A stretch of 64,000 nucleotides of DNA from Eledone cirrhosa (Eukaryota), in NCBI GenBank assembly GCA_964016885.1, contig OZ024740.1, forward strand, positions 332,010,001-332,074,000. Direction: 5' to 3'. The notes under the pieces are model-generated. The model was not told the origin of the DNA and did no database searches. It worked only from the letters and a program-made list of their open reading frames with translations. Shown in pieces: positions 11,665 to 44,496 of this stretch (positions within the stretch are counted from its first letter, which is position 1; every line of letters starts with the position of its first letter). The position numbers and the translations under genes are program-made.

Positions 11665-11738
<74 letters not shown>

Positions 11739-11764
11739 TTGCGAGGTTTTGATATGAGATCGTG

Positions 11765-12220
11765 TAACAAAACAAATATTGTTATACAGAAATAATAACA
11801 GAACACGCTCACTGTTTGGTTGGTTTTCGCTTCTGCATCTTTTATATCTCCTTATTTAATTCATTTGGCCATCAACGTTTGTCATTGACTGAACAACGAA
11901 GACAACAATAAATATATAAATAAATAAATAAAATAAAAATGCCGTAAACACAACACAATATAAGGAAGCATGATAATAGTATCACTGATGATGTTGCAGA
12001 TGTGCAACGAAAGAACTTTGTTAGACTATATATGTATATATATATATATATATATATACATATATATATCTGTATTTTTGACCGTTGGTCAGTCAATGAT
12101 AAACATTGATGGCCAAATGAATTAACTATGCAGATATAAAAGATGCAGAAGCGAAAACCAAACAAACAGCGAGTGTGTTCTGTTATTATTTCTGACAATA
12201 GTATTACAAAATTATGACCC
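11765..12220 (+). mobile_element. Non-coding fold-back element (PLE terminal-repeat relic with an inverted copy of its 3' end)
   Basis: About 110-bp inverted arms (11785-11897 vs 12083-12195), HHR motif in the spacer, 3' end abuts (TA)n. Confidence 0.65.
11978..12027 (+). ncRNA. Minimal type I hammerhead motif (PLE-type)
   Basis: CTGATGA-T-GTTGCA(GATG)TGCAAC-GAAA-G(AA)C-TT. Helix I is degenerate. Confidence 0.65.
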
Positions 12221-12255
12221 ATATATATATATATATAAATATATATATATATAAA

Positions 12256-12352
<97 letters not shown>

Positions 12353-12353
<1 letters not shown>

Positions 12354-12896
12354 TGGAAAAGAATGAAACGAAATTTCATTTCTCCCTCTTAGTAGGGCTG
12401 ATACCTAAATATAAGTATGTATACGTATGCACATCCGTTAATATGCATAAGGAAAGTATATACTTTCAGACGTTCAATCATCTGACAGAAAGGTATACGA
12501 TGCTGACGATAGCTAATAAGCTTGAAACTAGTACATCGTTCCTGTGGCAGTGTTGAACAAAAGGGCGACGATGGTTGCCGAGCACTGTACGGCGTAATTC
12601 GGGCTGTTTGTTTACAGAGAAGCCGAACATTATAATAAATGTTCGGTAAACCCATACGTACATATATATATATGTGTTCATGTATGTATATATGTACATA
12701 CTACTCTGCATTGGTACAAATATATGTATGTACGTATACATACTTATATTTAGGTATCAGCTGTACTAAGAGTGAGGAATGAAATTTCGTTTCATTCTTT
12801 TCATTCTTTTCCATTTATCGTTTTCGCTATACCCGGCCGACTAATTCACTCGATATGCCAATTAGGCTGCTCAGCGTAATTCGGGCTGTTTGTTTA
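12353..12896 (+). mobile_element. Dispersed monomer of the ~443-bp HHR repeat with a 5' inverted segment
   Basis: 12435-12875 equals one array unit. 12353-12434 is an inverted copy of about 12724-12814. Confidence 0.85.
12482..12550 (+). ncRNA. Type I hammerhead ribozyme (intact core)
   Basis: CGATG-CTGACGA-TAGC(TAATAA)GCTT-GAAA-C(TA)G-TA-CATCG. Predicted cleavage after 12533. Confidence 0.8.
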
Positions 12897-14186
12897 TAAC
12901 AAAAAACAAATCCTCCATTCCCTTATGCCAAACTCATGACTTCCAAATATCTGATCCACCGAAACTCAGCTGTATCGGACCACACCAAAATCAACATACT
13001 GATGTGGATTTGGTACGGGTGATGAGAAACGCGTCCCGCATGTGCAACCCCAAAGAACTAGAGAGACACATACAACACTTCATCCACCGTCTGCAGTTCT
13101 CTGGTTACAATCAGAGAGATAAAATTAGAGTATATAGAGGAGCCAGAACCAAATGGGAAAAAATGGTAAATAATGATACAAATGGTACTGCCCCTTGTAT
13201 AGGAGCAAATTTTGGAATAGAATAGAAAGAACTAGGAATAAGGTTAATAGAATAAACTCATGGTATGATAGTAATAAATACAAGAGTGTAATGTTTATCA
13301 ATACAACCCCTAGAGGTGAATTAGCTTACAAATTTAGAAGGGCCCTAGATAAACATAAACTCAATATTAAGATAGTAGAAAGACCAGGTACCGCCATAAA
13401 AACACTTATTAGCAATACATACCCTTTTCAAAGACCCCCCTGTATAGATAAGAAATGTATAATCTGTAAGCTAAGCTCCCATATTAACTGTAAAACTAGA
13501 AATGTAGTATATAGCATAAGATGTACTGAAGGACAATGTAGAGATAAGAATATAGTGTACATAGGTGAGACAGCTCGTAGTATAGGGGAACGGATAAATG
13601 AACACTGGCGAGAGCTTCAAGATAGTAAAGAATCATCTGTACTCCACCAACATACTAAAATAGAACATAAGGGTAAATTAGAGAACATAGAAATAAAAAT
13701 AGAATCTACACACAGAAAAGACGCAATGTTTAGACAAATCACAGAGGCAGTAAACATAAATGAATTACAACCAAAATTAAATAGAAAACATGAATGGAAC
13801 AGCAAATCACAACTTACAATTAAGGACAACATGAAAACACACACACACATAGAACAAACAAACAACCAGTAACATGTAAATAAACAAATAAATAAACAAA
13901 TATAAACACACACAGACACCCGGATGTAACACATGCGCAAACTAAACACACAACACACACAAACACAAGATGGCGTAGGACAGAACAAAGGAGAGGCACA
14001 AAAACAAAGAAAAGAATACCCAGTAACTGAAGAGGTCACAGAATGTGTCACGAAAGAACTTTGACAATATATGAACAATCGTCTGGTTGTGGAACCAAGC
14101 AACCAACCGGAAATTTATAAATTTAATTCATAATATATTCAAGTGAAAGCATGGTGCTTATTGGCAACATGACCCTCCCAAAGCAT

Positions 14187-14190
<4 letters not shown>
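12897..14190 (+). mobile_element. 5'-truncated Penelope-like element (RT thumb, GIY-YIG domain, 3' terminal repeat)
   Basis: Colinear with 21027-22469. Frameshifts near 12925-13000 and 13195. NVVYSIRC..VYIGETARSIGERINEH. Ends in (TA)n. Confidence 0.92.
14022..14066 (+). ncRNA. Degenerate PLE hammerhead motif
   Basis: CTGAAGA-G-GTCACA(GAATG)TGTCAC-GAAA-GAAC-TT, with mismatches in helices I and II. Confidence 0.55.
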
Positions 14191-14270
<80 letters not shown>

Positions 14271-15903: not shown

Positions 15904-15940
<37 letters not shown>

Positions 15941-16153
15941 CGTTTCTGAATTTGTTTAGCAAGATTCTTTATCTGAAATCGTGTGTTGAAACCGATATTG
16001 TTATACTTTGGGAGGGTCATGTTGCCAATAAGAAACACACGCACCAGTTGCTTTCACTTCAATTTAATTTATTATATATTTATAAATTTACAAATTTATA
16101 AATTTCTGGTTGGTTGGTTGGTTCCACAACCAGATAGTTGTTTATATATATAT

Positions 16154-16198
16154 AGTCATAGTTCTTTCGTCACACACTCTGTGACCTCTTCAGTGACT
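16154..16198 (-). ncRNA. Minimal type I hammerhead in PLE terminal repeat (intact core)
   Basis: Minus strand reads AGTCA-CTGAAGA-G-GTCACA(GAGTG)TGTGAC-GAAA-G(AA)C-TA-TGACT. Confidence 0.8.
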
Positions 16199-16503
16199 GG
16201 GGATTTCTTTCTTCGTTTCTGTGCCTTTCCTTTCTTCTATCCTACGCCATTTTGTTTGTGTGTGGGTTGCGTGCTCAGTTTGCGCATGCGCCACATCCGG
16301 GTGTCTGTGTGTGTTTGTGTTCATTTTTCTATTTTTCTATTTATATTTTTCTATTTGTTTATTTATTTATTTATTTATTGTTGGTTGGTTGTTTGTTCTA
16401 TGTGTGTGTGTGTTTTCATTTTGTCTTGTGTGTGATTTCATTTTGTGTGTGTTTTCAATTGTAAGTTGTTTGTTCTATGTGTGTGTGTGTTTTCATTTTG
16501 TCC

Positions 16504-18867
16504 TTAATTGTAAGTTGTGATGTTGCTGTTCCACTCATATTTTCTATTTAATTTTGGTTTTAATTCTTTTATGCTTACTGCCTCTGTAATTTGCCTAAAC
16601 ATTGCGTCTTTCTTGTGTGTGGATTCTATTTTTATTTCTATGCTCTCTAATTTACCCCTGTGTTCTATCTTAGCATGTTGGTAGAGCACAGATGATTCTT
16701 TATTATATTGGAGGTCTCGCCAGTGTTCATTTATTCGTTCCCCTATACTACGAGCTGTCTCACCTATGTACACTATATTTTTGTTTCTACATTGTCCTTC
16801 AGTACATCTTATGCTATATACTACATTTCTAGTTTTACAGTTAATATGGGGGCTTATTTTACAGGTTATACATTTCTTATCTATACATGAGGGTCTTTGG
16901 AACGGGTATGTCTTGCTAATAAGTGTTTTTACGGAGGTACCAGGTCTTTCTACTATCTTAATATTGAGATTATGTTTCTTTATGGCCCTTCTAAATTTGT
17001 AGGCTAGTTCGCCTCTAGGGGTTGTATTGATGAACATTACACTCTGGTATTTATTGCTATTATACCATGAGTTTATTCTATTGGCCTTGTTCCTAGTTCT
17101 TTCTATTCTATTCCAAAATTTGCTCCTATACAAGGGGCAGGTCCCATTTATGTCATTATTTACCATTTTTTCCCATTTGGTTCTGGCTCCTTTATACACT
17201 CTGATTCTATCTCTCTGATTGTAGCCAGAGAACTGCATACGGTGGATGAAGTGTTGTATGTGTCTCTCTAGTTCTTCGGGGTTGCACAAGCGGGACACAT
17301 TTCTCATCACCCGTACCAAATCCGCAATCAGTATGTTGATTTTGGTATGGTCCGAAATGGCCGAGTTTCGGTGGATCAGATGTTTGGAAGTCATGGGTTT
17401 GGCATAATGGGAATGGAGGATTTGTTTTTGGTTGTTAATTGTATCTAACCAGAGCTCTGTGTCTAGTACAGGTAATCGATGGTTGGGGTGTCTACTTGGG
17501 TAGTCTATAGTAACTCTAATGCTCTGGTGGATGGAGTTTGCTATTTGCTGGATGCTTTCCATTGTGTTTTTCTCTAGTTCCTGACTGTTCTTTAGTGGGG
17601 GTGTCTTAACTACGATGTTTATATCATCTACGTAGCGGGAGTACATTATCAGGGTTAAGCTGTCTTCTAATTGTTCATTAAGTTTTTGTTTAAGTCTACT
17701 GTCCCACCATACCATGAATAAGTTAGCTATGTCGCCTGCAATGCTAACACCAATGGCTGCTCCTTCCTCTTGGGCATATGTTTTACCATTAAATTTGAAC
17801 ATATGTTCCTTAAGGGTTAATTTTATGCTGGCCCCTACCGCATGTGCAATCATTTTCTTCAGTTCATCGTGGTTTTCGGGTGTCCGTATGGCTCTGGTCC
17901 ACCCGTTCCATCTATCTGTGTGGGTTTTCTTGGCCATTGAGGTAATGTTAGGTGGTCTGCCTCTTGCTGGTCTTGTAGGGCACAGGTTGCTAAGGTTATA
18001 AGTGTCTAGGTAACTATTACTATGGGTAAGCTTAAGTAGAAGTCCCAGCTCACTGGTATCAATCCCACGGAACTCAACCTTGCTCTCGCTGATCATTTCT
18101 ACGCATTTCACCACAGCAAAATCCACGTCAATAGATGGATACAGGGACACAACATCAATACTGCCTATTATGCAGTTTGTTAGGTCCCCAGATCGGTTAC
18201 CCGCGCCGATTCTGCTGAGGAGATCCTCCGTGCTGTCACACACATCTGGGGACATCTCAATGATGGGGCGTATGATCAGGGAGAGGAAGTAGGACAGTCT
18301 GTAGTTACTAGCAATGTTAGCCCCACAGACTGGCCGTGTTGGTGGTCCCGCGACAGGGTCCCAGCCCGTTTTATGGTCTTTTCGAAGCCCATACAACGCC
18401 GGCATGTCATTGTTCCAGGCCTGGAAGTTGTTGGCAGTCCTTTTGTTGGGCTACATTATATTTGTCCACATCACCATATGGGCATTGAGGGTTTTTTCTC
18501 TATCCTCATGCTCCTGTGGTGTTACCTCTCTTGTGTTAGTGATGTGGGGTTGCATTGCCTGGATGTAGTTTGGCAGGCTGTCAACCGACATTCTGCCAGA
18601 CTTGTCTGTTGGAAAGCATGCTATCTCTCCATTACGCGAGCGCTGCATGAGCTTACGCAAGCCATTTGCAGATTCTTCTCCCAGTTGCTGGGCCTCTATT
18701 CTATTATGCTTCTTGCTATACTGTTCTATAATATTTCTAAGTTCGGATTTAGCTATACTAAATTGTGCTTGTTTGTTCATCGACCTGCGACGGCAACTGC
18801 GTGCGTTTGTTAAATGGCAAAGTCGTGGCGTGGACTCGTCGCAGGTCGAATGATTTATCGGAGGGGT
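16504..18867 (-). pseudogene. Inverted 5'-truncated copy of the PLE RT-GIY-YIG ORF
   Basis: 633-aa open stretch with YVDD and GIY-YIG motifs. CAG>TAG stop near 18452 and a 2-bp deletion near 18770 relative to the + copy. Confidence 0.92.
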
Positions 18868-21800
18868 GTCTGTGCTACGTCTGCCACCCAAATTTGCGAC
18901 ATTCAAGAAGGTAAATATGATTAGTTGTCTGTCAGAAATAGAAAAATCATTTACGAAACTACGCTGGGGCATCAAAAACAAAAACAAAACAACAATATAC
19001 GCACACACATATACAACACACATCCCAACAACAACAGACACACAGACACAAACAACAATAACAACAACAATAGCAACATACCCAGATACAACAACAACAA
19101 TAGCAACATACCCAGATACAACAACAACAGACACGCAAACACAAACAACAATAACAACACACACAACAACGATAACACACACACACACGGAGACAACAAC
19201 AACACACATCAACAACAACACACATCAACAACAACAACACACACGCATTCAATGCCTCTCACCACCACCACAATCTTAACAAACACACAGACACAGAAAA
19301 CAAGTAATGACAGTAGCATAGAAATCAGAGAAATAAGAGAAAGTAATAGGATTAAAAAGAAAAGGAGATGGGAGACTAAGGACAAAGAGAATAACCAAGA
19401 CGAACACACAGACACACAAAATAGGGTAGATAACAACATTGAGCCAGTGGAAAGAGACAGGAGTAATTATGAGAGACATAGAAACAACCATGAAGCTGAG
19501 GCTGCTGCTGTTGGTGGAAATAGAAACAAAACAACTAACAATAATAATAGCACTAGTACACATAAAGCAGCAGCCTGGAACTCTCCGTTTTATAACCCCT
19601 CCGATAAATCATTCGACCTGCGACGAGTCCACGCCACGACTTTGTCATTTAACAAACGCACGCAGTTGCCGTCGCAGGTCGATGAACAAACAGAAGCACA
19701 ATTTAGTATAGCTAAATCCGAACTTAGAAATATTATAGAACAGTATAGCAAGAAGCATAATAGAATAGAGGCCCAGCAACTGGGAGAAGAATCTGCAAAT
19801 GGCTTGCGTAAGCTCATGCAGCGCTCGCGTAATGGAGAGATAGCATGCTTTCCAACAGACAAGTCTGGCAGAATGTCGGTTGACAGCCTGCCAAACTACA
19901 TCCAGGCAATGCAACCCCACATCACTAACACAAGAGAGGTAACACCACAGGAGCATGAGGATAGAGAAAAAACCCTCAATGCCCATATGGTGATGTGGAC
20001 AAATATAATGCAGCCCAACAAAAGGACTGCCAACAACTTCCAGGCCTGGAACAATGACGTGCCGGCGTTGTATGGGCTTCGAAAAGACCATAAAACGGGC
20101 TGGGACCCTGTCGTGGGACCACCAACACGGCCAGTCTGTGGGGCTAACATTGCTAGTAACTACAGACTGTCCTACTTCCTCTCCCTGATCATACGCCCCA
20201 TCATTGTGATGTCCCCAGATGTGTGTGACAGCACGGAGGACCTCCTCAGCAGAATCGGCGCGGGTAACCGATCTGGGGACCTAACAAACTGCATAATAGG
20301 CAGTATGGATGTTGTGTCCCTGTATCCATCTATTGACGTGGATTTTGCTGTGGAGAAATGCGTAGAAATGATCAGCGAGAGCAAGGTTGAGTTCCGTGGG
20401 ATTGATACCAGTGAGCTGGGACTTCTACTTAAGCTTACCCATAGTAATAGTTACCTAGACACTTATAACCTTAGCAACCTGTGCCCTACAAGACCAGCAA
20501 GAGGCAGACCACCTACCATTACCTCAATGGCCAAGAAAACCCACACAGATAGATGGAACGGGTGGACCAGAGCCATACGGACACCCGAAAACCACGATGA
20601 ACTGAAGAAAATGATTGCACATGCGGTAGGGGCCAGCATAAAATTAACCCTTAAGGAACATATGTTCAAATTTAATGGTAAAACATATGCCCAAGAGGAA
20701 GGAGCAGCCATTGGTGTTAGCATTGCAGGCGACATAGCTAACTTATTCATGGTATGGTGGGACAGTAGACTTAAACAAAAACTTAATGAACAATTAGAAG
20801 ACAGCTTAACCCTGATAATGTACTCCCGCTACGTAGATGATATAAACATCGTAGTTAAGACACCCCCACTAAAGAACAGTCAGGAACTAGAGAAAAACAC
20901 AATGGAAAGCATCCAGCAAATAGCAAACTCCATCCACCAGAGCATTAGAGTTACTATAGACTACCCAAGTAGACACCCCAACCATCGATTACCTGTACTA
21001 GACACAGAGCTCTGGTTAGATACAATTAACAACCAAAAACAAATCCTCCATTCCCATTATGCCAAACCCATGACTTCCAAACATCTGATCCACCGAAACT
21101 CGGCCATTTCGGACCATACCAAAATCAACATACTGATTGCGGATTTGATACGGGTGATGAGAAATGTGTCCCGCATGTGCAACCCCGAAGAACTAGAGAG
21201 ACACATACAACACTTCATCCACCGTATGCAGTTCTCTGGCTACAATCAGAGAGATAGAATCAGAGTGTATAAAGGAGCCAGAACCAAATGGGAAAAAATG
21301 GTAAATAATGACATAAATGGGACCTGCCCCTTGTATAGGAGCAAATTTTGGAATAGAATAGAAAGAACTAGGAACAAGGCCAATAGAATAAACTCATGGT
21401 ATGATAGCAATAAATACCAGAGTGTAATGTTCATCAATACAACCCCTAGAGGCGAACTAGCCTACAAATTTAGAAGGGCCATAAAGAAACATAATCTCAA
21501 TATTAAGATAGTAGAAAGACCTGGTACCTCCGTAAAAACACTTATTAGCAAGACATACCCGTTCCAAAGACCCTCATGTATAGATAAGAAATGTATAACC
21601 TGTAAAATAAGCCCCCATATTAACTGTAAAACTAGAAATGTAGTATATAGCATAAGATGTACTGAAGGACAATGTAGAAACAAAAATATAGTGTACATAG
21701 GTGAGACAGCTCGTAGTATAGGGGAACGAATAAATGAACACTGGCGAGACCTCCAAGATAATAAAGAATCATCTGTGCTCTACCAACATGCTAAGATAGA

Positions 21801-21960
21801 ACACAGGGGTAAATTAGAGAGCATAGAAATAAAAATAGAATCCACACACAAGAAAGACGCAATGTTTAGGCAAATTACAGAGGCAGTAAGCATAAAAGAA
21901 TTAAAACCAATATTAAATAGAAAATATGTGTGGAACAGCAACATCATAACTTACAATTAA
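18868..21960 (+). CDS. PLE polyprotein: N-terminal domain, reverse transcriptase, Cys-rich linker, GIY-YIG endonuclease (5'-truncated; one frameshift in the low-complexity region 18972-19279)
   Basis: Motifs VLRLPPKFA..EKSFTKLRW (frame of ORF 18866), PTDKSG, LYGLRKDHK..RPV, SMDVVSLYPSI, QEEGAAIG, RYVDD, LPVLD, CxxxxCxxC, NVVY..YIGETAR..RINEH, EA..KP.LN. Confidence 0.93.
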
Positions 21961-22265
21961 GGACAAAATGAAAACACACACACACATAGAACAAACAACT
22001 TACAATTGAAAACACACACAAAATGAAAACACACACAAGACAAAATGAAAACACACACACACATAGAACAAACAACCAACCAACAATAAATAAATAAATA
22101 AATAAACAAATAGAAAAATATAAATAGAAAAATAGAAAAATGAACACAAACACACACAGACACCCGGATGTGGCGCATGCGCAAACTGAGCACGCAACCC
22201 ACACACAAACAAAATGGCGTAGGATAGAAGAAAGGAAAGGCACAGAAACGAAGAAAGAAATCCCC

Positions 22266-22310
22266 AGTCACAGAAGAGGTCACAGAGTGTGTGACGAAAG
22301 AACTATGACT
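22266..22310 (+). ncRNA. PLE hammerhead with a core mutation (CAGAAGA)
   Basis: Same as the 16154-16198 motif except T>A at 22272 in the CUGA turn. Confidence 0.7.
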
Positions 22311-22461
22311 ATATATATATAAACAACTATCTGGTTGTGGAACCAACCAACCAACCAGAAATTTATAAATTTGTAAATTTATAAATATATAATAAATTAA
22401 ATTGAAGTGAAAGCAACTGGTGCGTGTGTTTCTTATTGGCAACATGACCCTCCCAAAGTAT

Positions 22462-22515
<54 letters not shown>

Positions 22516-24550: not shown

Positions 24551-25034
24551 ATAATTATTAATTAATTCTATCGTGCAATGCCTGTGCGTGAAGATATTTT
24601 TAAAGTGAGGAACAACTGAGCGCAGGTTTTATATTGGAGTTATCCCAGTTTCCTGAGTTTCATTCTCCTAGAAGAATGCCGTGACAAAGGCTAGGGGTCC
24701 TTCACTCTTAGTGGTTTAACCGCGCGATAGGGTGTCCAGCCCGACTATATCTATGTCACCGCGCATATAATTACACCCATGCATACACATATACATACAT
24801 ATGTACATGTGTATATAGATATTTACACACTTTGGGATGGCCGTTGACTTTTATGAGTTCTTTCGCTCTTTGTCAGGTTTTGCTTTTTATTCTGCAGGGT
24901 GTCCAAAATCCCGCTCCTCACCAAATAAACTTGGTGGGGTTGCCGGTTTAGTCGCTGACGACCCGACCATGCGATAGGTTATACTGGGTTACATGTTACC
25001 AGTAGCATTCAAGAGTGACCCGACATATATACAT

Positions 25035-25513
25035 ACATACATGCATGTATATACATACTAGTGTACGTCTGTAAACATATATGTATGTACGTATACATGC
25101 TTATATTTAAGTATGAGCCGTACTAAGATTGAGAAATGACATTTCATTTTTCCATTTATCGTTTTCGGTTCACCGACTAACTCACTCGATATGCAAATTA
25201 GGCTGCTCAGGCGTTAATATGCATAAGGAAAGTATATACTTTCAAACATTCAATCGACTGACAGGAAGGTATACGATGCTGATGACAACTAACATGCTAG
25301 AAACTAGTTCATCGTTCCTTAATCATTGTTGAACAAAAGGGCAACGATGGTTGCCGAACACTGTACGGCTACGAATTCGGGGTGTTTGTTTACAAACAAA
25401 CAGAGCATTATAATAAATGTTCGGTAAACCCATACGTACATATATATATGTGTATGTATGTATATAGATACTAGTGTACATCTGTATACATATATGTATG
25501 TACGTATACATGC

Positions 25514-25515
<2 letters not shown>
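25035..25515 (+). mobile_element. Diverged dispersed monomer of the ~443-bp HHR repeat
   Basis: Colinear with the array unit. CTGATGA at 25279, GAAACTAGTT-CATCG, helix II disrupted. Confidence 0.85.
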
Positions 25516-25555
<40 letters not shown>

Positions 25556-33173: not shown

Positions 33174-33237
<64 letters not shown>

Positions 33238-33242
33238 AAGTG

Positions 33243-33693
33243 TGTATGTAAGTTTACGTACATACATATATGTATACAGACATACAGTAGTATGTATATA
33301 TATACATACCTTCACACACATATATATATGCACCTATCGTACTAAGAGTGAGAAATGAAGTTTCGTTTCATTCTATTCCATTTATCGTTTTCGGTGCGCC
33401 CGGCCGACTGAACTCACTCGATATGCAAATTAGGCTAACCAGCAGTTAATATACATAAGGAAATTATATACTTTCAGATGTTCAACCATCTGGCAGGAAG
33501 GTATACGATGCTGACGATAGTTAATAAGCTTGAAACTAGTACATCGTTCCTGTGTCAGTGTTGAACAAAAAGGTGACGTGGTTGCCTAAACACTGTACGG
33601 CGTAATTCGGGCTGTTGGTTTGTTTACAAACAAACAAACCGAGCATTATAATAAATGTTCGGTAAACCGATACGTGCATATATATGAGTGTGC

Positions 33694-33747
<54 letters not shown>

Positions 33748-36700
33748 TCTACTGTACGTCTGTATACATATATCTATGTACGTATACATACATACGTAGT
33801 TACATTTAAGTAAGTGCTGTACTAAGAGTGAGAAATGAAATTTCCTTTAATTCTATTCCATTTATCGTTTTCGGTGCGCCCGGCCGACTCAACTAACACA
33901 ATATGCAAATTAGGCTGCTCAGCCGTTAATATGCATATGGGAAGTATATACTTTCAGACCTTCAAGCATCTGGCAGGAAGGTATACGATGCTGACGATAA
34001 TTAATAAGCTTGAAACGAGTACATCGTTCCTGTGTCAGTGTTGAACAAACAGATGACGTGGTTGCCTAAACGCTGTACGCCGTAATTCGGGTTGTTTGTT
34101 TGTTTGTTTACAAACAAACAAACTGAGCATTATAATAAATGTTCGGTAAACCGATACGTGCATATATATGTGTGTGCATGTATGTATATATATACATACT
34201 ACTGTATGTCTGTATACATATATCTATGTACGTATACATACATACATACTTACATTTAAGTAAGTGCCGTACTAGGAGGCAGAAATGAAATTTCGTTTCA
34301 TTCTATTACATTTATCGTTTTCGGTGCACAAGGCCGACTGAACTCACTCGATATGCAAATTAGTCTGCTCATCCGTTAATATGCATAAGGAAAATATATA
34401 CTTTCAGACGTTCAAACATCTGGCAGGAAGGTATACCATGCTGACGATAGTTAATAAGCATGAACCTGGTACATCGTTCCTGTGTCAGGGTTGAACAAAA
34501 GGGTGACGTGGTTGCCTAAACACTGTACGGCGTAATTCGGGATGTTGGTTTATTTACAAACTAACAAACCGAACATTACAATAAATGTTGGGTAAACCGA
34601 TACGTGCACATATATGTGTGTGCATGTATGTATATACATACTACTGTACGTCTGTATACATATATGTATGTACGTATACATACTTACATTTCAATAAGTG
34701 CCGTACTAAGAGTGAGAAATGAAATTTCGTTTCATTCTATTCCATTTATCGTTTCCGGTGCGCCCGGCCGACTGAACTCACTCGATATACAAAGTAGGCG
34801 GCTCAGCCATTAATATGTATAAGGAAAGTATATACTTACAGACGTTCAACCATCTGACAGGAAGGTATACGATGCTGACGATAGCTAATAAGCTTGAATC
34901 TAGTACGTCGTTCCTGTGTCAGGGTTGAACAAAAAGGTAACGTGGTTGCCTAAACACCGTACGGCGTAATTCGGGCTGTTGGTTTATTTAGAAACTAACA
35001 AACCGAACATTAGAATAAATGTTCGGTAAACCGATACGTGCATATATATGTGTGTGCATGTATGTATATATATACATACTACTGTACGTCTGTATACATA
35101 TATGTATGTACGTATACATACATACTTACATTTAAGTAAGTGCCGTACTAAGAGTGAGAAATGAAATTTCGTTTCATTCTATTCCATTTATCGTTTTCGG
35201 TGCACCCGGCCGACTGAACTCACTCGATATGCAAATTAGGCTGCTCAGCCGTTAATATGCATAAGGAAAGACTATACTTTCAGACGTTCAAGCATCTTGC
35301 AGAAGGTATACGATGCTGATGATAACTAATGAGCTTGAATCTAGTACATCGTTCCTGTGTCAGTGTAGAACAAAAAGGTGACGTGGTTGCCTAAACACTG
35401 TACGGCGTAATTCGGGCTGTTGGTTTATTTACAAACAAACAAACAGAACATTATAATAAATGTTCGGTAAACCGATACGTGCATATATATGTGTGTGCAT
35501 GTATGTATATATATATACATACTACTGTACGTCTGTATACATATATGTATGTACATATACATACATACATACTTAAATTTAAGTAAGTGCAGTACTAAGA
35601 GTGAGAAATGAAATTTCGTTTCATTCTATTACATTTGTCGTTTTCGGTGCGCCCGGCCAATTGAAATCACTCGATATGCAAATTAGGCTGCTCAGCCGTT
35701 AATATACATAAGGACAATATATACTTTCAGACGTTCAAACATCTGGCAGGAAGGTATACCATGCTGACGATAGCTAATAAGCATGAACCAGGTACATCGT
35801 TCCTGTGTCAGTGTAGAACAAGGTGAGTTGGTTGCCTAAACACTGTACGGTGTAATTCGGGATGTTTGTTTATTTACAAACGAATAAACCGAGCATTATA
35901 ATAAATGTTGGGTAAACCGATACGTGCATATATACGTGTGTGCATGTATGTATATAGATACATACTACTGTACGTCTGTATACATATATGTATGTACGTA
36001 TACATACATACTTACATTTAAGTAAGTGTTATACTAAGTGTGAGAAATGAAATTTCGTTTCATACTATTCCATTTATCGTTTTCGGTGCACCCGGCCGAC
36101 TGAACTCACTCGATATGCAATTTAGGCTGCTCAGCCGTTAATATGCATAAGGAAAATATATACTTTCAGACGTTCAAACATCTGGAAGGAAGGTGTACGA
36201 TGCTGACGATAGCTAATATGCTTGAAACTAGTACATCGTTCCTGTGTCAGTGTAGAACAAAAAGGTGACATGGTTGCTTAAACACTGTACGGTGTAATTC
36301 GGGATGTTTGTTTGTTTACAAACAAACAAACCGTGCATTATAATAAATGTTCTGTAAACCGATACGTGCATATATATGTGTGTGCATGTATGTATATATA
36401 TACATACTACTGTATGTCTGTATACATATATATATGTACGTATACATACATACATACTTACATTTAAGTAAGTGCCGTACTAGGAGGCAGAAATGAAATT
36501 TCGTTTCATTCTATTACATTTATCGTTTTCAGTGCGCCCGGCCGACTGAACTCACTCGATATGCAAATTATGCTGCTCAGCCGTTAATATCCATAAGGAA
36601 AATATATACTTTCAGACGTTCAAACATCTAGAAAAAGGTGTACGATGCTGACGATAGCTAATATGCTTGAAATTAGTACATCGTTCCTGTGTCAGAGAAG

Positions 36701-39700
36701 AACAAAAAGGTGACGTGGTTGCCTAAACACTGTACGGCGTAATTCGGGCTTTTGGTTTATTTAGAAACAAACAAACAGAACATTATAATAAATGTTCGGT
36801 AAACCGATACGTGCATATATGTGTGTGCATGTATGTATATATATACATACTACTGTACGTCTGTATACATATATGTATGTACGTATACATACATACTTAC
36901 ATTTAAGTCAGTGCCGTACTAAGAGTGATAAATGAAATTTCGTTTCATTCTATTCCATTTATCGTTTCCGGTGCACAAGGCCGACTGAACTCACTCGATA
37001 TGCAAATTAGTCTGCTCAGCCTTTAATATGCATAAGGAAAGAATATACTTTCAGACGTTCAAGCTTCTTGTAGGAAGGTATACGATGCTGATGATAGCTA
37101 ATAAGCTTGAATCTAATAAATCGTTCCTGTGTCAGTGTAGAACAAAAAGGTGACGTGGTTGCCTAAACACTGTACGGTGTAATTCGGAATGTTTGTTTGT
37201 TTACAAACAAACAAACCGGGCATTATAATAAATGTTCGCTAAACCGATACGTGTATATATATGTGTGCATGTATGTATATATATACATACTACTGTACGT
37301 CTGTATACATATATCTATGTACGTATACATACATACTTACATTTCAATAAGTGCAGTACTAAGAGTGAGAAATGAAATTTCGTTTCATTCTATTCCATTT
37401 ATCGTTTTCGGTGCGCCCGGCCGACTGAACTCACTCGATATACAAAGTAGGCGGCTCAGCCATTAATATGTATAAGGAAAGTATATACTTACAGACGTTC
37501 AACCATCTGAGAGGAAGGTATACGATGCTGACGATAGCTAATAAACTTGAATTTAGTACATCGTTCCTGTGTCAGGGTTGAACAAAAAGGTAACGTGGTT
37601 GCCTAAACACCGTACGGCGTAATTCGGGCTGTTGGTTTATTTACAAACTAAAAACCGAACATTAGAATAAATGTTCGGTAAACCGATACGTGCATATATA
37701 TGTGTGTGCATGTATGTATATATATACATACTACTGTACGTCTGTATACATATATGTATGTACGTATACATACATACTTACATTTAAGTAAGTGCCGTAC
37801 TAAGAGTGAGAAATGAAATTTCGTTTCATTCTATTCCATTTATAGTTTTCGTTGCACGCGGCCGACTTAACTCACTCGATATGCAAACTGGCTGCTCAGC
37901 CGTTAATATTCATAAGGAAAGAATATACTTTCAGACGTTCAAGCATCTTGCAGGAAGGTATATGATGCTGATGATAGCTAATAAGCTTGAATCTAGTACA
38001 TCGTTCCTGTGTCACTGTAGAACAAAAAGGTGACGTAGTTGTCTAAACACTGTACGGCGTAATTCGGGCTGTTGGTTTATTTACAAACAAACAAACCGGG
38101 CATTATAATAAATGTTCGGTAAACCGATACGTGCATATATATGTGTGTGCATGTATGTGTGTATATACATACTACTGTATGTCTGTATACATATATGTAT
38201 GTACGTATACATACATACTTACATTTAAGTATGTGCCGTACTAGGAGGGAGAAATGAAATTTCGTTTCATTCTATTACATTTATCGTTTTAGGTGCGCCC
38301 GGCCGACTGAACTCACTCGATATGCAAATTAAGCTGCTCAGCCGATAATATGCATGAGGAAAATATATACTTTCAGACGTTCAAACATCTGGCAGGAAGG
38401 TGTACGGTGCTGACGATAGCTAATATGCTTGAAACTAGTACATCGTTCCTGTGTCAGTTTTGAACAAAAAGGTGACATGGTCGCTTAAACACGGTACAGC
38501 GTAATTCGGGCCGTTGGTTTATTTACAAACAAACAAACAGAACATTATATTAAATGTTCGGTAAACCGATACGTGCATATATATGTGTGTGCATGTATGT
38601 ATATATATACATACAACTGTACGTCTGTATACATATATGTATGTACATATACATACATACATACTTAAATTTAAGTAAGTGCAGTACTAAGAGTGAGAAA
38701 TGAAATTTCGTTTCATTCTATTACATTTGTCGTTTTTGGTGCGCCCGGCCGATTGAAATCACTCGATATGCAAATTAGGCTGCTCAGCCGTTAATATGCA
38801 TAAGGAAAATATATACTTTCAGACGTTCAAACATCTGGAAGGAAGGTGTACGATGCTGACGATAGCTAATATGCTTGAAACTAGTACATCCTTCCTGTGT
38901 CAGTGTAGAACAAAAAGGTGACATGGTTGCTTAAACACTGTACGGTGTAATTCGGGATGTTTGTTTGTTTACAAACAAACAAACCGTGCATTATAATAAA
39001 TGTTCTGTAAACCGATACGTGCATATATATGTGTGTGCATGTATGTATATATATACATACTACTGTATGTCTGTATACATATATGTATGTACGTATACAT
39101 ACATACTTACTTACATTTAAGTAAGTGCCGTACTAGGAGGCAGAAATGAAATTTCGTTTCATTCTATTACATTTATCGTTTTCGGTGCGCCCGGCCGACT
39201 GAACTCACTCGATATGCAAATTAGGCTGCTCAGCCGTTAATATCCATAAGGAAAATATATACTTTCAGACGTTCAAACATCTAGAAAAAGGTGTACGATG
39301 CTGACGATAGCTAATATGCTTGAAATTAGTACATCGTTCCTGTGTCAGAGAAGAACAAAAAGGTGACGTGGTTGCCTAAACAATGTACGGCGCAATTCGG
39401 GCTTTTGGTTTATTTAGAAACAAACAAACAGAACATTATAATAAATGTTCGGTAAACCGATACGTGCATATATGTGTGTGCATGTATGTATATATATACA
39501 TACTACTGTACGTCTGTATACATATATGTATGTACGTATACATACATACTTACATTTAAGTCAGTGCCGTACTAAGAGTGATAAATGAAATTTCGTTTCA
39601 TTCTATTCCATTTATCGTTTCCGGTGCACAAGGCCGACTGAACTCACTCGATATGCAAATTAGTCTGCTCAGCCTTTAATATGCATAAGGAAAGAATATA

Positions 39701-42700
39701 CTTTCAGACGTTCAAGCTTCTTGTAGGAAGGTATACGATGCTGATGATAGCTAATAAGCTTGAATCTAATACATCGTTCCTGTGTCAGTGTAGAACAAAA
39801 AGGTGACGTGGTCGCCTAAACACTGTACGGTGTAATTCGGAATGTTTGTTTGTTTACAAACAAACAAACCGGGCATTATAATAAATGTTCGGTAAACCGA
39901 TACGTGTATATATATGTGTGCATGTATGTATATATATACATACTACTGTACGTCTGTATACATATATCTATGTACGTATACATACATACTTACATTTCAA
40001 TAAGTGCAGTACTAAGAGTGAGAAATGAAATTTCGTTTCATTCTATTCCATTTATCGTTTTCGGTGCGCCCGGCCGACTGAACTCACTCGATATACAAAG
40101 TAGGCGGCTCAGCCATTAATATGTATAAGGAAAGTATATACTTACAGACGTTCAACCATCTGAGAGGAAGGTATACGATGCTGACGATAGCTAATAAGCT
40201 TGAATTTAGTACATCGTTCCTGTGTCAGGGTTGAACAAAAAGGTAACGTGGTTGCCTAAACACCGTACGGCGTAATTCGGGCTGTTGGTTTATTTACAAA
40301 CTAACAAACCGAACATTAGAATAAATGTTCGGTAAACCGATACGTGCATATATATGTGTGTGCATGTATGTATATATATACATACTACTGTACGTCTGTA
40401 TACATATATGTATGTACGTATACATACATACTTACATTTAAGTAAGTGCCGTACTAAGAGTGAGAAATGAAATTTCGTTTCATTCTATTCCATTTATAGT
40501 TTTCGTTGCACGCGGCCGACTTAACTCACTCGATATGCAAACTGGCTGCTCAGCCGTTAATATTCATAAGGAAAGAATATACTTTCAGACGTTCAAGCAT
40601 CTTGCAGGAAGGTATATGATGCTGATGATAGCTAATAAGCTTGAATCTAGTACATCGTTCCTGTGTCACTTTAGAACAAAAAGGTGACGTAGTTGTCTAA
40701 ACACTGTACGGCGTAATTCGGGCTGTTGGTTTATTTACAAACAAACAAACCGGGCATTATAATAAATGTTCGGTAAACCGATACGTGCATATATATGTGT
40801 GTGCATGTATGTGTGTATATACATACTACTGTATGTCTGTATACATATATGTATGTACGTATACATACATACTTACATTTAAGTATGTGCCGTACTAGGA
40901 GGGAGAAATGAAATTTCGTTTCATTCTATTACATTTATCGTTTTAGGTGCGCCCGGCCGACTGAACTCACTCGATATGCAAATTAAGCTGCTCAGCCGAT
41001 AATATGCATGAGGAAAATATATACTTTCAGACGTTCAAACATCTGGCAGGAAGGTGTACGATGCTGACGATAGCTAATATGCTTGAAACTAGTACATCGT
41101 TCCTGTGTCAGTGTTGAACAAAAGGTGACATGGTCGCTTAAACACGGTACAGCGTAATTCGGGCCGTTGGTTTATTTACAAACAAACAAACAGAACATTA
41201 TATTAAATGTTCGGTAAACCGATACGTGCATATATATGTGTGTGCATGTATGTATATATATACATACAACTGTACGTCTGTATACATATATGTATGTACA
41301 TATACATACATACATACTTAAATTTAAGTAAGTGCAGTACTAAGAGTGAGAAATGAAATTTCGTTTCATTCTATTACATTTGTCGTTTTTGGTGCGCCCA
41401 GCCGATTGAAATCACTCGATATGCAAATTAGGCTGCTCAGCCGTTAATATACATAAGGAAAATATATACTTTCAGACGTTCAAACTTCTGGCAGGAAGGT
41501 ATACGATGCTGACGATAGCTAATAAGCATGAACCAGGTACATCGTTCCTGTGTCAGTGTAGAACAATAAGGTGAGTTGGTTGCCTAAACACTGTACGGTG
41601 TAATTCGGGATGTTTGTTTATTTACAAACAAATAAACCGAGCATTATAATAAATGTTGGGTAAACCGATACGTGCATATATACGTGTGTGCATGTATGTA
41701 TATAGATACATACTACTGTACGTCTGTATACATATATGTATGTACGTATACATACATACTTACATTTAAGTAAGTGTTATACTAAGTGTGAGAAATGAAA
41801 TTTCGTTTCATACTATTCCATTTATCGTTTTCGGTGCTCCCGGCCGACTGAACTCACTCGATATGCAAATTAGGCTGCTTAGCCGTTAATATGCATAAGG
41901 AAAATATATACTTCCAGACGTTCAACCATCTGGCTGGAAGGTTTACGATGCTGACGATAGCTAATAAGCTTGAAACTAATACATCGTTCCTGTGTTATTG
42001 TTGAACAAAAAAAAGGTGACGTGGTTGCCTAAACAGTGTACGGCGTAATTCGGGCTGTTTGTTTGTTTACAAACAAACAAATCGAGCATTATAATAAATG
42101 TTCGTTAAACCGATACGTGTATATATATGAGTGTGCGTGTATGTATATATATACATACTACTGTACGTCTGTATACATATATCTATGTACGTATACATAC
42201 ATACTTACATTTCAATAAGTGCCGTACCAAGAGTGAGAAATGAAATTTTGTTTCATTCTATTCCATTTATCGTTTTCGGTGCGCCCGGGCGACTGAACTC
42301 ACTCGATATGCAAATTAGGCTGCTCAGCCGTTAATATGCATGAGGAAAATATATACTTTCAGACGTTCAAACATCTAGAAAAAGGTGTACGATGCTGACG
42401 ATAGCTAATATGCTTGAAATTAGTACATCGTTCCTGTGTCAGAGAAGAACAAAAAGGTGACGTGGTTGCCTAAACACTGTACGGCGTAATTGGGGCTTTT
42501 GGTTTTTTTACAAAGAAACAAACCGAACATTATAATAAATGTTCGGTAAACCGATACGTGCATATATATGTGTTTGCATGTATGTATATATATACATACT
42601 ACTCGACGTCTGTATACATATATCTATTTACGTATACATACATACTTACATTTCAATAAGTGCCGTACCAAGAGTGAGAAATGAAATTTTGTTTCATTCT

Positions 42701-44491
42701 ATTCCATTTATCGTTTTCGGTGCGCCCGGCCGACTGAACTCACTCGATATGCAAAGTAGGCGGCTCAGCCGTTAATATGTACAAGGAAAGTATATACTTA
42801 CAGACGTTCAACCATCGGACAGGAAGGTATAAGATGCTGACGATAGCTAATAAGCTTGAATCTAGTACATCGTTCCTGTGTCAGTGTTGAACAAAAAGGT
42901 GACGTGGTTGCCTAAACACTGTACGGCGTAATGTGGGCTGTTGATTTATTTACAAACAAACCAACCGAACATTATAATAAATGTTCGGTAAATGGATACG
43001 TGCATATATATGTGTGTGCATGTATATATACATACTACTGTACGTCTGTATACATACATACTTACATTTAAGTAAATGCTATACTAGGAGTGAGAAATGA
43101 AATTTCGTTTCATTCTATTCCATTTATCGTTTTCGGTGCACCCGGCCGACTGAACTCACTCGATATGCAAATTAGGCTGCTGAGACGTTAATATGCATAA
43201 GGAAAGAATATACTTTCAGACGTTCAAACATCTTGCAGTAAGGTATACCATGCTGACGATAGCTAATAAGCTTGAATCTAGTACATCGTTCCTGTGTCAG
43301 TGTAGTATAAAAAGGTGACGTGTTTGCCTAAACACTGTATGGTGTAATTCGGGGTGTTTGTTCGTTTACAAACAAACAAACTGAGCATTATAATAAATGT
43401 TCGGTAAAACGATACGTGCATATATATGAGTGTGCGTGTATGTATATATATACATACTACTGTACGTCTGTATACATATATCTATGTACGTATACATACA
43501 TACTTACATTTCAATAAGTGCCGTACCAAGAGTGAGAAATGAAATTTTGTTTCGTTCTATACCATTTATCGTTTTCGGTGCGCCCGGCCGACTGAACTCA
43601 CTCGATATGCAAAGTAGGCGGCTCAGCCGTTAATATGTACCAGGAAAGTATATACTTACAGACGTTCAACCATCTAACAGGAAGGTATACGATGCTGACG
43701 ATAGCTAATAAGCTTGAAACTAGTACATCGTTCCTGTGTCAGTGTAGAACAATAAGGTGAGTTGTTTGCCTAAACACTGTACGGCGTAATTCGGGCTGTT
43801 GGTTTGTTTACAAACAAACAAACTGAGTATTATAATAAATGTTCGGTAAACCGATACGTGCATATATATATGTGTCCATGTATGTATATATATACATACT
43901 ACTGTACGTATGTATACATATATATATGTACGTATACATACATACTTACATTTAAGTAAGTGTCGTACTAAGAGTGAGAAATGAAATTTCGTTTCATTCT
44001 ATTCCATTTATCGTTTTCGGTGCGCCCGGCCGACTGAACTCACATGATATGCAAATTAGGCTGGTCAGCCGTTAATATGCATAAGGAAAGTATATACTTT
44101 CAGACGTTCATGCATCTGCAGGAAGGTATACGATGCTAACGATAGTTAATAAGCTTTAAACTAGTAGATCCTTCCTGCGTCAGTGTTGAACAAAAAGGTG
44201 ACGCGGTTGCCTAAACACTGTACGGCGCAATTCGGTCTGTTTGTTTGTTTACAAACAAACAAACTGAGCATTATAATAAATGTTCGGTAAAACGATACGT
44301 GCATATATATATATATGTGTGCATGTATGTATATATATACATACTAGTTTACGTTTGTATACATATATGTATGTGCGTATATATACATACATACATACTT
44401 ATATTATATAAGTGCCGTAGTAAGAGTGAGAAATGAACTTTCGTTTCATTCCATTCCATGTATCGTTTTCGGTGAGCCCGGCCGACTGAAC

Positions 44492-44496
<5 letters not shown>
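33243..44496 (+). repeat. Tandem array of 25 units of ~443 bp, each with a type I hammerhead motif (retrozyme-like satellite)
   Basis: Cores start at 33511, 33991, 34441, 34875, 35316, 35764, 36203, 36648, 37088, 37528, 37968, 38410, 38856, 39301, 39741, 40181, 40622, 41064, 41509, 41951, 42395, 42837, 43253, 43695 and 44136 (the last is degenerate, CTAACGA). Confidence 0.92.
43662..43750 (+). ncRNA. Representative intact hammerhead of the array (unit 24)
   Basis: ACAGGAA-(GGTATA)-CGATG-CTGACGA-TAGC(TAATAA)GCTT-GAAA-C(TA)G-TA^CATCG-TTCCTGT. Predicted cleavage after 43725. Confidence 0.85.

Follow-up and report, generated by a model that had tools for sequence, protein, structure and literature searches.

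A retrozyme monomer fused to a truncated Penelope-like element in Eledone cirrhosa, and the insertion footprint of the two repeat families

As to which enzyme moves the animal retrozymes, the literature, in its accessible text, points to Penelope-like elements (PLEs) on the grounds that the two occur together, both carry hammerheads and resemble each other in the pLTR; it offers no mechanistic evidence. In the portions available to us, Cervera and de la Pena (2020, PMC7229834) regard PLEs as a strong candidate for retrozyme mobilization, and Li, Clavereau and Pollet (2026, bioRxiv 10.64898/2026.07.22.740005) report co-occurrence together with pLTR similarity and leave the mechanism open. A locus of Eledone cirrhosa at which a retrozyme runs directly into a PLE raises the question of whether both parts were written in a single event. 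A first-pass annotation of the window, a stretch of 64,000 nucleotides of contig OZ024740.1, had read it as one insertion in which the reverse transcriptase (RT) of the PLE switched template from its own RNA to that of the retrozyme. We re-examined the locus and compared it with other copies of both families in the genome (3.0 Gb in 1796 contigs).

The composite consists, from left to right, of (TA)67, an inverted 72-nt retrozyme arm, a full monomer of 440 nt, a 23-nt retrozyme piece, a 5'-truncated PLE that we call PLE1, and (TA)40 (Table 1). Much of the earlier description was confirmed: retrozyme and PLE meet on one strand at 12896/12897 with no (TA)n spacer, (TA)n stands on either flank, and the repeat is not resumed beyond the PLE 3' end at 14190. 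The left part, described as a retrozyme monomer, does hold a full monomer, but also the inverted arm and the 23-nt piece, and the break placed "mid-RT" is indeed within the RT, but about 55 codons past the YVDD motif and therefore in its C-terminal part, as judged against the longer copy at 16504-18450. By the end classes of the family copies, the outer end of the inverted arm is the long 3' end of the retrozyme, facing left into the (TA)n, and PLE1 at 12897-14190 stops at the short 3' end of its family, without the tail. The 5' joint of the 23-nt piece skips about 157 nt of the monomer, including the hammerhead. On the other side of (TA)67, which it shares with the composite, lies a remnant of a second PLE family (11735-12215) with its own hammerhead at about 11984-12025 and an inverted left arm; this family follows an endonuclease frame at two other loci (L069 and L072).

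Table 1. Features of the composite locus, with positions in the window, and classes of head-to-head loci found elsewhere in the genome
Feature	Position or loci	Strand or orientation	Remarks
Left (TA)n tract, 67 units	12221..12354	.	Common to the composite and to the second PLE family remnant on the tract's left
Inverted retrozyme arm, monomer positions ~378 to 304	12353..12427	-	12356-12427 is 94% identical to 12731-12802
Full retrozyme monomer + 8 nt, 448 nt, period ~440 nt	12428..12875	+	Sequence comparison
Predicted type I hammerhead	12497..12539	+	Read from sequence; predicted cut after 12533
23-nt retrozyme piece, monomer positions 165-187	12874..12896	+	Identical to 12592-12614
5'-truncated Penelope-like element (PLE1)	12897..14190	+	Frameshifted C-terminal RT part, GIY-YIG endonuclease, 3' UTR
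Open reading frame containing the CX4CxxC linker and the GIY-YIG/CCHH motifs of the endonuclease	13177..13872	+	87% identical to frame 16504-18450
Minimal hammerhead of the PLE1 pLTR; degenerate here	14022..14066	+	Read from sequence
Right (TA)n tract, 40 units	14191..14270	.	Repeat annotation of sequence
Spacer-free fusions (10/30)	L154, L216, L220, L223, L224, L270, L274, L276, L278, L281	head-to-head	L274 borderline
AT-rich-run joints (2/30)	L217, L256	head-to-head	
Nested insertions, target resumes (5/30)	L267, L275, L280, L282, L284	head-to-head	

The monomer at 12428-12875 shares 80-84% identity with the tandem array at 33731-44496 (24.4 units of 442 bp), which belongs to the same family, and 96-97% over 233 nt with dispersed copies. 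The hammerhead core and helices can be read in the array units as well as in the monomer; at 12497-12539 they comprise a 6-bp helix I, the core CUGACGA, a 4-bp helix II closed by GAAA, and a palindromic 2-bp helix III, and the usual G10.1-C11.1 pair is absent. The predicted fold recovers helices I and II, with a score (z -1.18) that is not significant by itself; no Rfam model reached its gathering threshold in the 64-kb window (0 matches), and the short palindromic helix III predicts that the putative ribozyme would be active as a dimer, following the available text of PMC4209133. The motifs are high-copy, dispersed as well as tandem (18,847 and 22,017 exact matches), the first of these figures being that of a 15-mer of the hammerhead core, against 3 for a control; these counts mix families, as the core motif also marks arrays with a period of about 465-510 nt (e.g. 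G000:C1:5541137-5543115), which are, to judge from the shared core, sister retrozyme families. Coding capacity at 12353-12896 is confined to short low-complexity frames, and a search with the PLE1 protein at 59 other repeat loci gave no RT or endonuclease match adjoining the repeat. As in the animal non-LTR retrozymes described in the accessible parts of PMC7229834 and bioRxiv 10.64898/2026.07.22.740005, this is a non-coding repeat, both tandem and dispersed, that is present in thousands of copies, has a single predicted type I hammerhead in each unit and co-occurs with PLEs, here with arrays of 24 units. Unlike those published retrozymes, ours has a unit of about 440 nt. The Xenopus families in the same preprint resemble a PLE pLTR, whereas the best match of this retrozyme to the pLTR of PLE1 was 18 nt (E 0.06, not significant). 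That the repeat is PLE1's own pLTR was therefore rejected.

The retrozyme arms cross the monomer boundary, which fits a circular or multimeric template. The idea that a length of one monomer reflects one round on a circle found no support, as 5 of 83 arms came to within 12 nt of a single period where 6.9 would be expected. Both ends of the one-monomer piece fall at a GC-rich hairpin spanning the monomer boundary (12855-12880 and 12428-12450), where the 5' junctions of arms seem clustered: 27 of 155 arms have theirs at positions 1-23, partly through a chaining artefact. The 24-unit array (33186-44496) shows an apparent higher-order periodicity and a non-standard end position, and two further partial copies are located at 25025-25522. 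Elsewhere, an abundant SINE-like repeat is inserted at the same AT-rich site (monomer position ~202) of two retrozyme copies (L058:2079-2136 and L060:1020-1204).

The fused PLE1 has 92% DNA identity to copies at 16466-17433 and 21031-21998. In a longer copy, the frame at 16504-18450 (648 aa) carries, as read from the sequence, YVDD, the CX4CxxC linker and a GIY-YIG/CCHH endonuclease; Pfam returned a weak RVT_1 match for it (E 2e-4, below the curated cut-off) and none for the frame at 13177-13872, and a PDB sequence search gave 0 matches. An exact 29-mer of the PLE1 3' end occurs 26,604 times in the genome. Copies of the family have a pLTR with a minimal hammerhead, a tail at one end and inverted 5'-truncated copies. 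The pLTR hammerhead of the fused copy does not fold as such (z +1.08), whereas its counterpart at 16140-16200 does form helices I and II. PLEs with a C-terminal endonuclease of the Neptune/Nematis type, in the accessible parts of PMC8557442 and PMC4209133, show the same order of RT, CX4CxxC linker and GIY-YIG/CCHH domain, the same minimal pLTR hammerhead and (TA)n targets, and the same 5' truncation, inverted copies and one-sided tail, which in PLE1 is about 60 nt long compared with 30-40 nt. By its motifs, PLE1 matches the description of Neptune/Nematis elements given in the available text of PMC8557442. Near full-length PLE1 copies also form a 6.5-kb head-to-head pair at 15925-22465, with the tail on the left arm and the short end on the right. 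Three loci (L218, L281 and L005) share one right flank at 90-99% identity past the PLE end and (TA)n, which is either an unnamed repeat or a duplication.

At the junction itself, retrozyme family copies continue past the break with ACAAACAAAC and the PLE reads ACAAAAAAC, in agreement with the ACAAA-rich runs noticed earlier on both sides; the run in this locus's own monomer is mutated. Such imperfect homology flanking the break fits a switch onto RNA and a switch onto DNA equally, and the junction can alternatively be read with a residual TATA. The missing (TA)n spacer is not special, because about half of the single-armed PLE1 copies join non-TA DNA at their 5' ends (5 non-TA, 5 TA and 1 GT run, counted after removal of 3 rows that were the element's own sequence). 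Two of 29 other PLE copies (L002 and L025) are cut at the very same nucleotide and are joined there to (TA)n. A DNA query spanning the junction found this locus alone among the best 40 of 1099 candidates, and the second joint, 23 nt upstream, had 1 exact match in the 3.0-Gb genome, so that an amplified fusion family was rejected. A composite DNA query gave 40 places, mostly retrozyme, with no new direct fusion among them. RNA ligation at the ribozyme cut was likewise rejected: the cut lies at about monomer position 106 and the joints at 187, 165 and 8, a difference from what is expected for ligated cut RNAs.

More informative are the ends of ordinary copies in both families. PLE1 copies end either at the short site or about 60 nt beyond it, after the tail, and retrozyme copies end at monomer position ~322 or ~378, which gives two fixed ends, again about 60 nt apart, neither of them at the predicted ribozyme cut. 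Across 237 loci, none of which had been picked as fusion candidates, 50 of 51 two-armed retrozymes had one long and one short end (p 8.5e-15 versus independent ends), although in two of the 51 an internal (TA)n (34 and 52 nt) makes separate insertions possible. The same held for 19 of 21 classified two-armed PLE1 copies (p 6.7e-5 versus independent ends), the exceptions being one short-short and one long-long pair; one further case was unclassified. Given these fixed ends and their long-plus-short pairing as in PLE1, we consider it very probable that a PLE-type enzyme inserts this retrozyme family. PLE1 is not thereby named as the driver, because it has no significant sequence in common with the retrozyme. 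A structure common to the two tails was also rejected, since only the retrozyme tail region folds (z -2.6 and -5.5, compared with -0.1 for the PLE tail). The proposal that PLEs mobilize the retrozyme is hence well supported by the end geometry of the family (50/51), and not by the junction that had prompted it.

In the accessible text of PMC11167929, a purified PLE protein (Poseidon of Anolis) is described in vitro that cuts both strands at AT-rich DNA, extends both, and begins reverse transcription at two internal positions in the RNA, which set the tail. This two-site start fits the two ends of both the retrozyme and PLE1, with the reservation that the clade differs; the same text reports no heterologous RNA or chimeric product. 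One-sided tails and inverted truncated copies are PLE features according to the available part of PMC8557442. Two-armed copies hold 115 of 177 retrozyme arms, and 17 internal skips were counted in retrozyme-only arms at 179 retrozyme-centred loci. At L284:993-1742, a PLE1 copy has received a two-armed retrozyme in its AT-rich 3' UTR. About 15 nt are duplicated and (TA)n is absent, so that such tracts are not required for insertion. In another set of loci (L126:2850-2950, L128, L131 and L228), (TA)n is repeatedly broken by a short CTTA/TAAG motif matching the retrozyme short end, and a miniature long-plus-short retrozyme remnant is present; the interruptions are possibly repeated abortive priming events.

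Ten head-to-head pattern windows yielded 34 rows and, after removal of 4 repeats, 30 distinct loci, which were classed by inspection; besides the classes in Table 1, in 13 the neighbours were kept apart by (TA)n or by other DNA. An eleventh spacer-free fusion, in addition to the present locus, is L011 from the 29 other PLE loci, and short extra pieces also occur at the joints of L216 and L220. Same-orientation junctions, which the first-pass annotation had suggested looking for, were scarce: six same-strand windows gave three matches, namely L257 with an AT-type joint and two spaced pairs, and no strict case. L257 shares the layout of our locus, with an outward long arm, a sense piece and a second-family PLE with a short end. 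None of the 179 retrozyme-centred loci, some of which overlap, was fused directly to PLE1 or PLE2. Enrichment of such junctions over random co-insertion, against which the earlier reading was to be judged, was not apparent either: the two motif sets gave 3 and 5 new strict cases, within the 3-12 per set expected under an approximate model that places single-armed PLEs beside flanking DNA taken at random. By orientation, ten spacer-free fusions in ten head-to-head windows compare with 0 strict (1 AT-type) in six same-strand windows, with a rough p of 0.016-0.025 that depends on estimated motif counts and overlapping windows. This bias makes large random deletions less likely, but it is compatible with a PLE landing next to the retrozyme 5' side with a short loss. 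The five nested insertions, both sides of which can be seen, show the target continuing with no large loss; these cases were selected for having none.

The long/short rule is relaxed in the fusions. Five of the ten strict fusions with two natural ends pair long with short (this locus, L154, L216, L223 and L278) and five break the rule (L220, L224, L270, L274 and L281), L276 and L011 being left out for a non-natural end; with three AT-type joints added, the count is 8 of 13. Both figures differ from the 69 of 72 within the families (Fisher p 4e-4 and 2e-3), and the fusions are therefore not ordinary two-armed events. Either two RNAs each picked a site freely, or the parts arrived separately. 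The rule was also considered as proof of single events and dropped, since the 7 of 9 found at first became 5 of 10 strict cases with more loci.

We put the chance that this locus was written as one event, by a PLE-type enzyme copying two RNAs, at close to even, nearly tied with a PLE biting into an older retrozyme. In the former case, the endonuclease would cut both strands of an AT-rich target, and each DNA end would prime reverse transcription at an internal RNA site. The right end would prime on PLE RNA at the short site, 1.3 kb would be copied, and the PLE cDNA would hop by the ACAAA-rich homology to the retrozyme RNA, then hop again after 23 nt and copy one full monomer. The left end would prime on retrozyme RNA at the long site for 72 nt, and the two cDNA ends would be joined into a back-to-back insertion between the (TA)n tracts. 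A simple one-strand switch is insufficient, because the inverted left arm would have to be primed at the opposite DNA end. In U6-L1 and other chimeric LINE retrocopies, the copy of a foreign RNA is joined to the 5' side of an autonomous element that is truncated, and in L1 twin priming, where both DNA ends act as primers, the 5' arm is left inverted; our locus resembles these in its fusion and its inverted arm, with a different enzyme class.

What makes one event plausible is that the outer ends of the composite are both natural and complementary, long for the retrozyme and short for the PLE, that divergence from the nearest family majorities is alike (8/300 versus 19/901 substitutions, Fisher p 0.65), that the two joints lie 23 nt apart, and that deep same-strand fusions are rare. 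Against it stand the fusion pairing of only 5/10, a fusion count within chance expectation, the 0 direct fusions in 179 loci, the PLE break point as a hot spot for (TA)n joining (L002 and L025), and the ordinary occurrence of internal skips in retrozyme-only arms; a head-to-head bias is expected as well if target losses are short. The single template switch of the earlier reading is plausible by its natural ends, similar divergence and homology-guided joint; enrichment was not apparent, and 5 of 10 fusions keep the pairing.

In the nearly equal alternative, only slightly less probable, the insertions were successive. A two-armed retrozyme, long on the left and short on the right, would have come first, and the (TA)n on its right would later have served as the priming site of a PLE; the far end of the PLE cDNA would have annealed via ACAAA into retrozyme DNA, copied 23 nt and removed the right end and its tract. 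Several observations agree with this order of events: the end classes of other fusions look independent (5/10) and the fusions are not clearly more numerous than chance predicts, the two families are concentrated on the same tracts (13 of 30 spaced neighbours and 5 nested), and the second PLE family abutting (TA)67 makes a third element on this tract. The inverted arm can be explained without a PLE, as 115/177 arms are in two-armed retrozymes, the same break is joined to (TA)n in L002 and L025, about half of the single-armed PLE1 copies have no 5' spacer, and internal skips are common. However, this order requires the loss of a tract and of 135 nt or more of the retrozyme, a loss seen in none of the five nested insertions, deep same-strand fusions are rare (1 AT-type, L257, in six windows), and there is no age gap between the retrozyme and PLE parts. 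That a later deletion between the ACAAA runs, unrelated to either insertion, fused two complete neighbours separated by (TA)n is improbable: the imperfect homology on both sides and the frequency of (TA)n-spaced neighbours (L115, L078 and L117) would suit it, but joints 23 nt apart need two deletions or templated repair, and same-strand fusions should then be as frequent as head-to-head ones, which is not seen. Least probable is an assembly chimera of two high-copy repeats. Four runs on 12760-13200 gave no spanning contig or read, as expected where contigs break in repeats and the raw run is reduced-representation; on the other hand, microhomology is present at the two joints, the layout is insertion-like, private changes occur in both parts, and comparable fusions, broken at other points, exist on several contigs. 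A search for paralogous empty sites of 20 insertions gave no convincing case.

Retrozymes and PLEs are known kinds of element and their link has already been proposed; the end geometry and the fusion catalogue were not found in the literature searched, as far as its accessible text goes. Two fixed ends and long-plus-short two-armed insertions are not reported in the available parts of PMC7229834 or bioRxiv 10.64898/2026.07.22.740005. Searches on PLE template-switch chimeras with a hammerhead repeat, PLE twin priming and cephalopod retrozymes, in which few subscription journals were covered, returned only reviews or unrelated work in the text available. We tentatively picture a dimeric Penelope enzyme that would start on a single RNA at two sites separated by 60 nt, each serving one of the cut strands, hence the strict long-plus-short rule, and that would sometimes load its own and the retrozyme RNA into one break. 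This locus and about ten others may then be fossils of trans-mobilization, the relaxed end pairing marking the two-RNA events. One junction cannot prove a shared event, and the case rests on the family-level footprint rather than on the junction. The fusions name PLE1 and PLE2 as candidate partner families, and a retrozyme with PLE-specific end geometry (50/51) gives two defined candidate priming sites for the enzyme that moves it.
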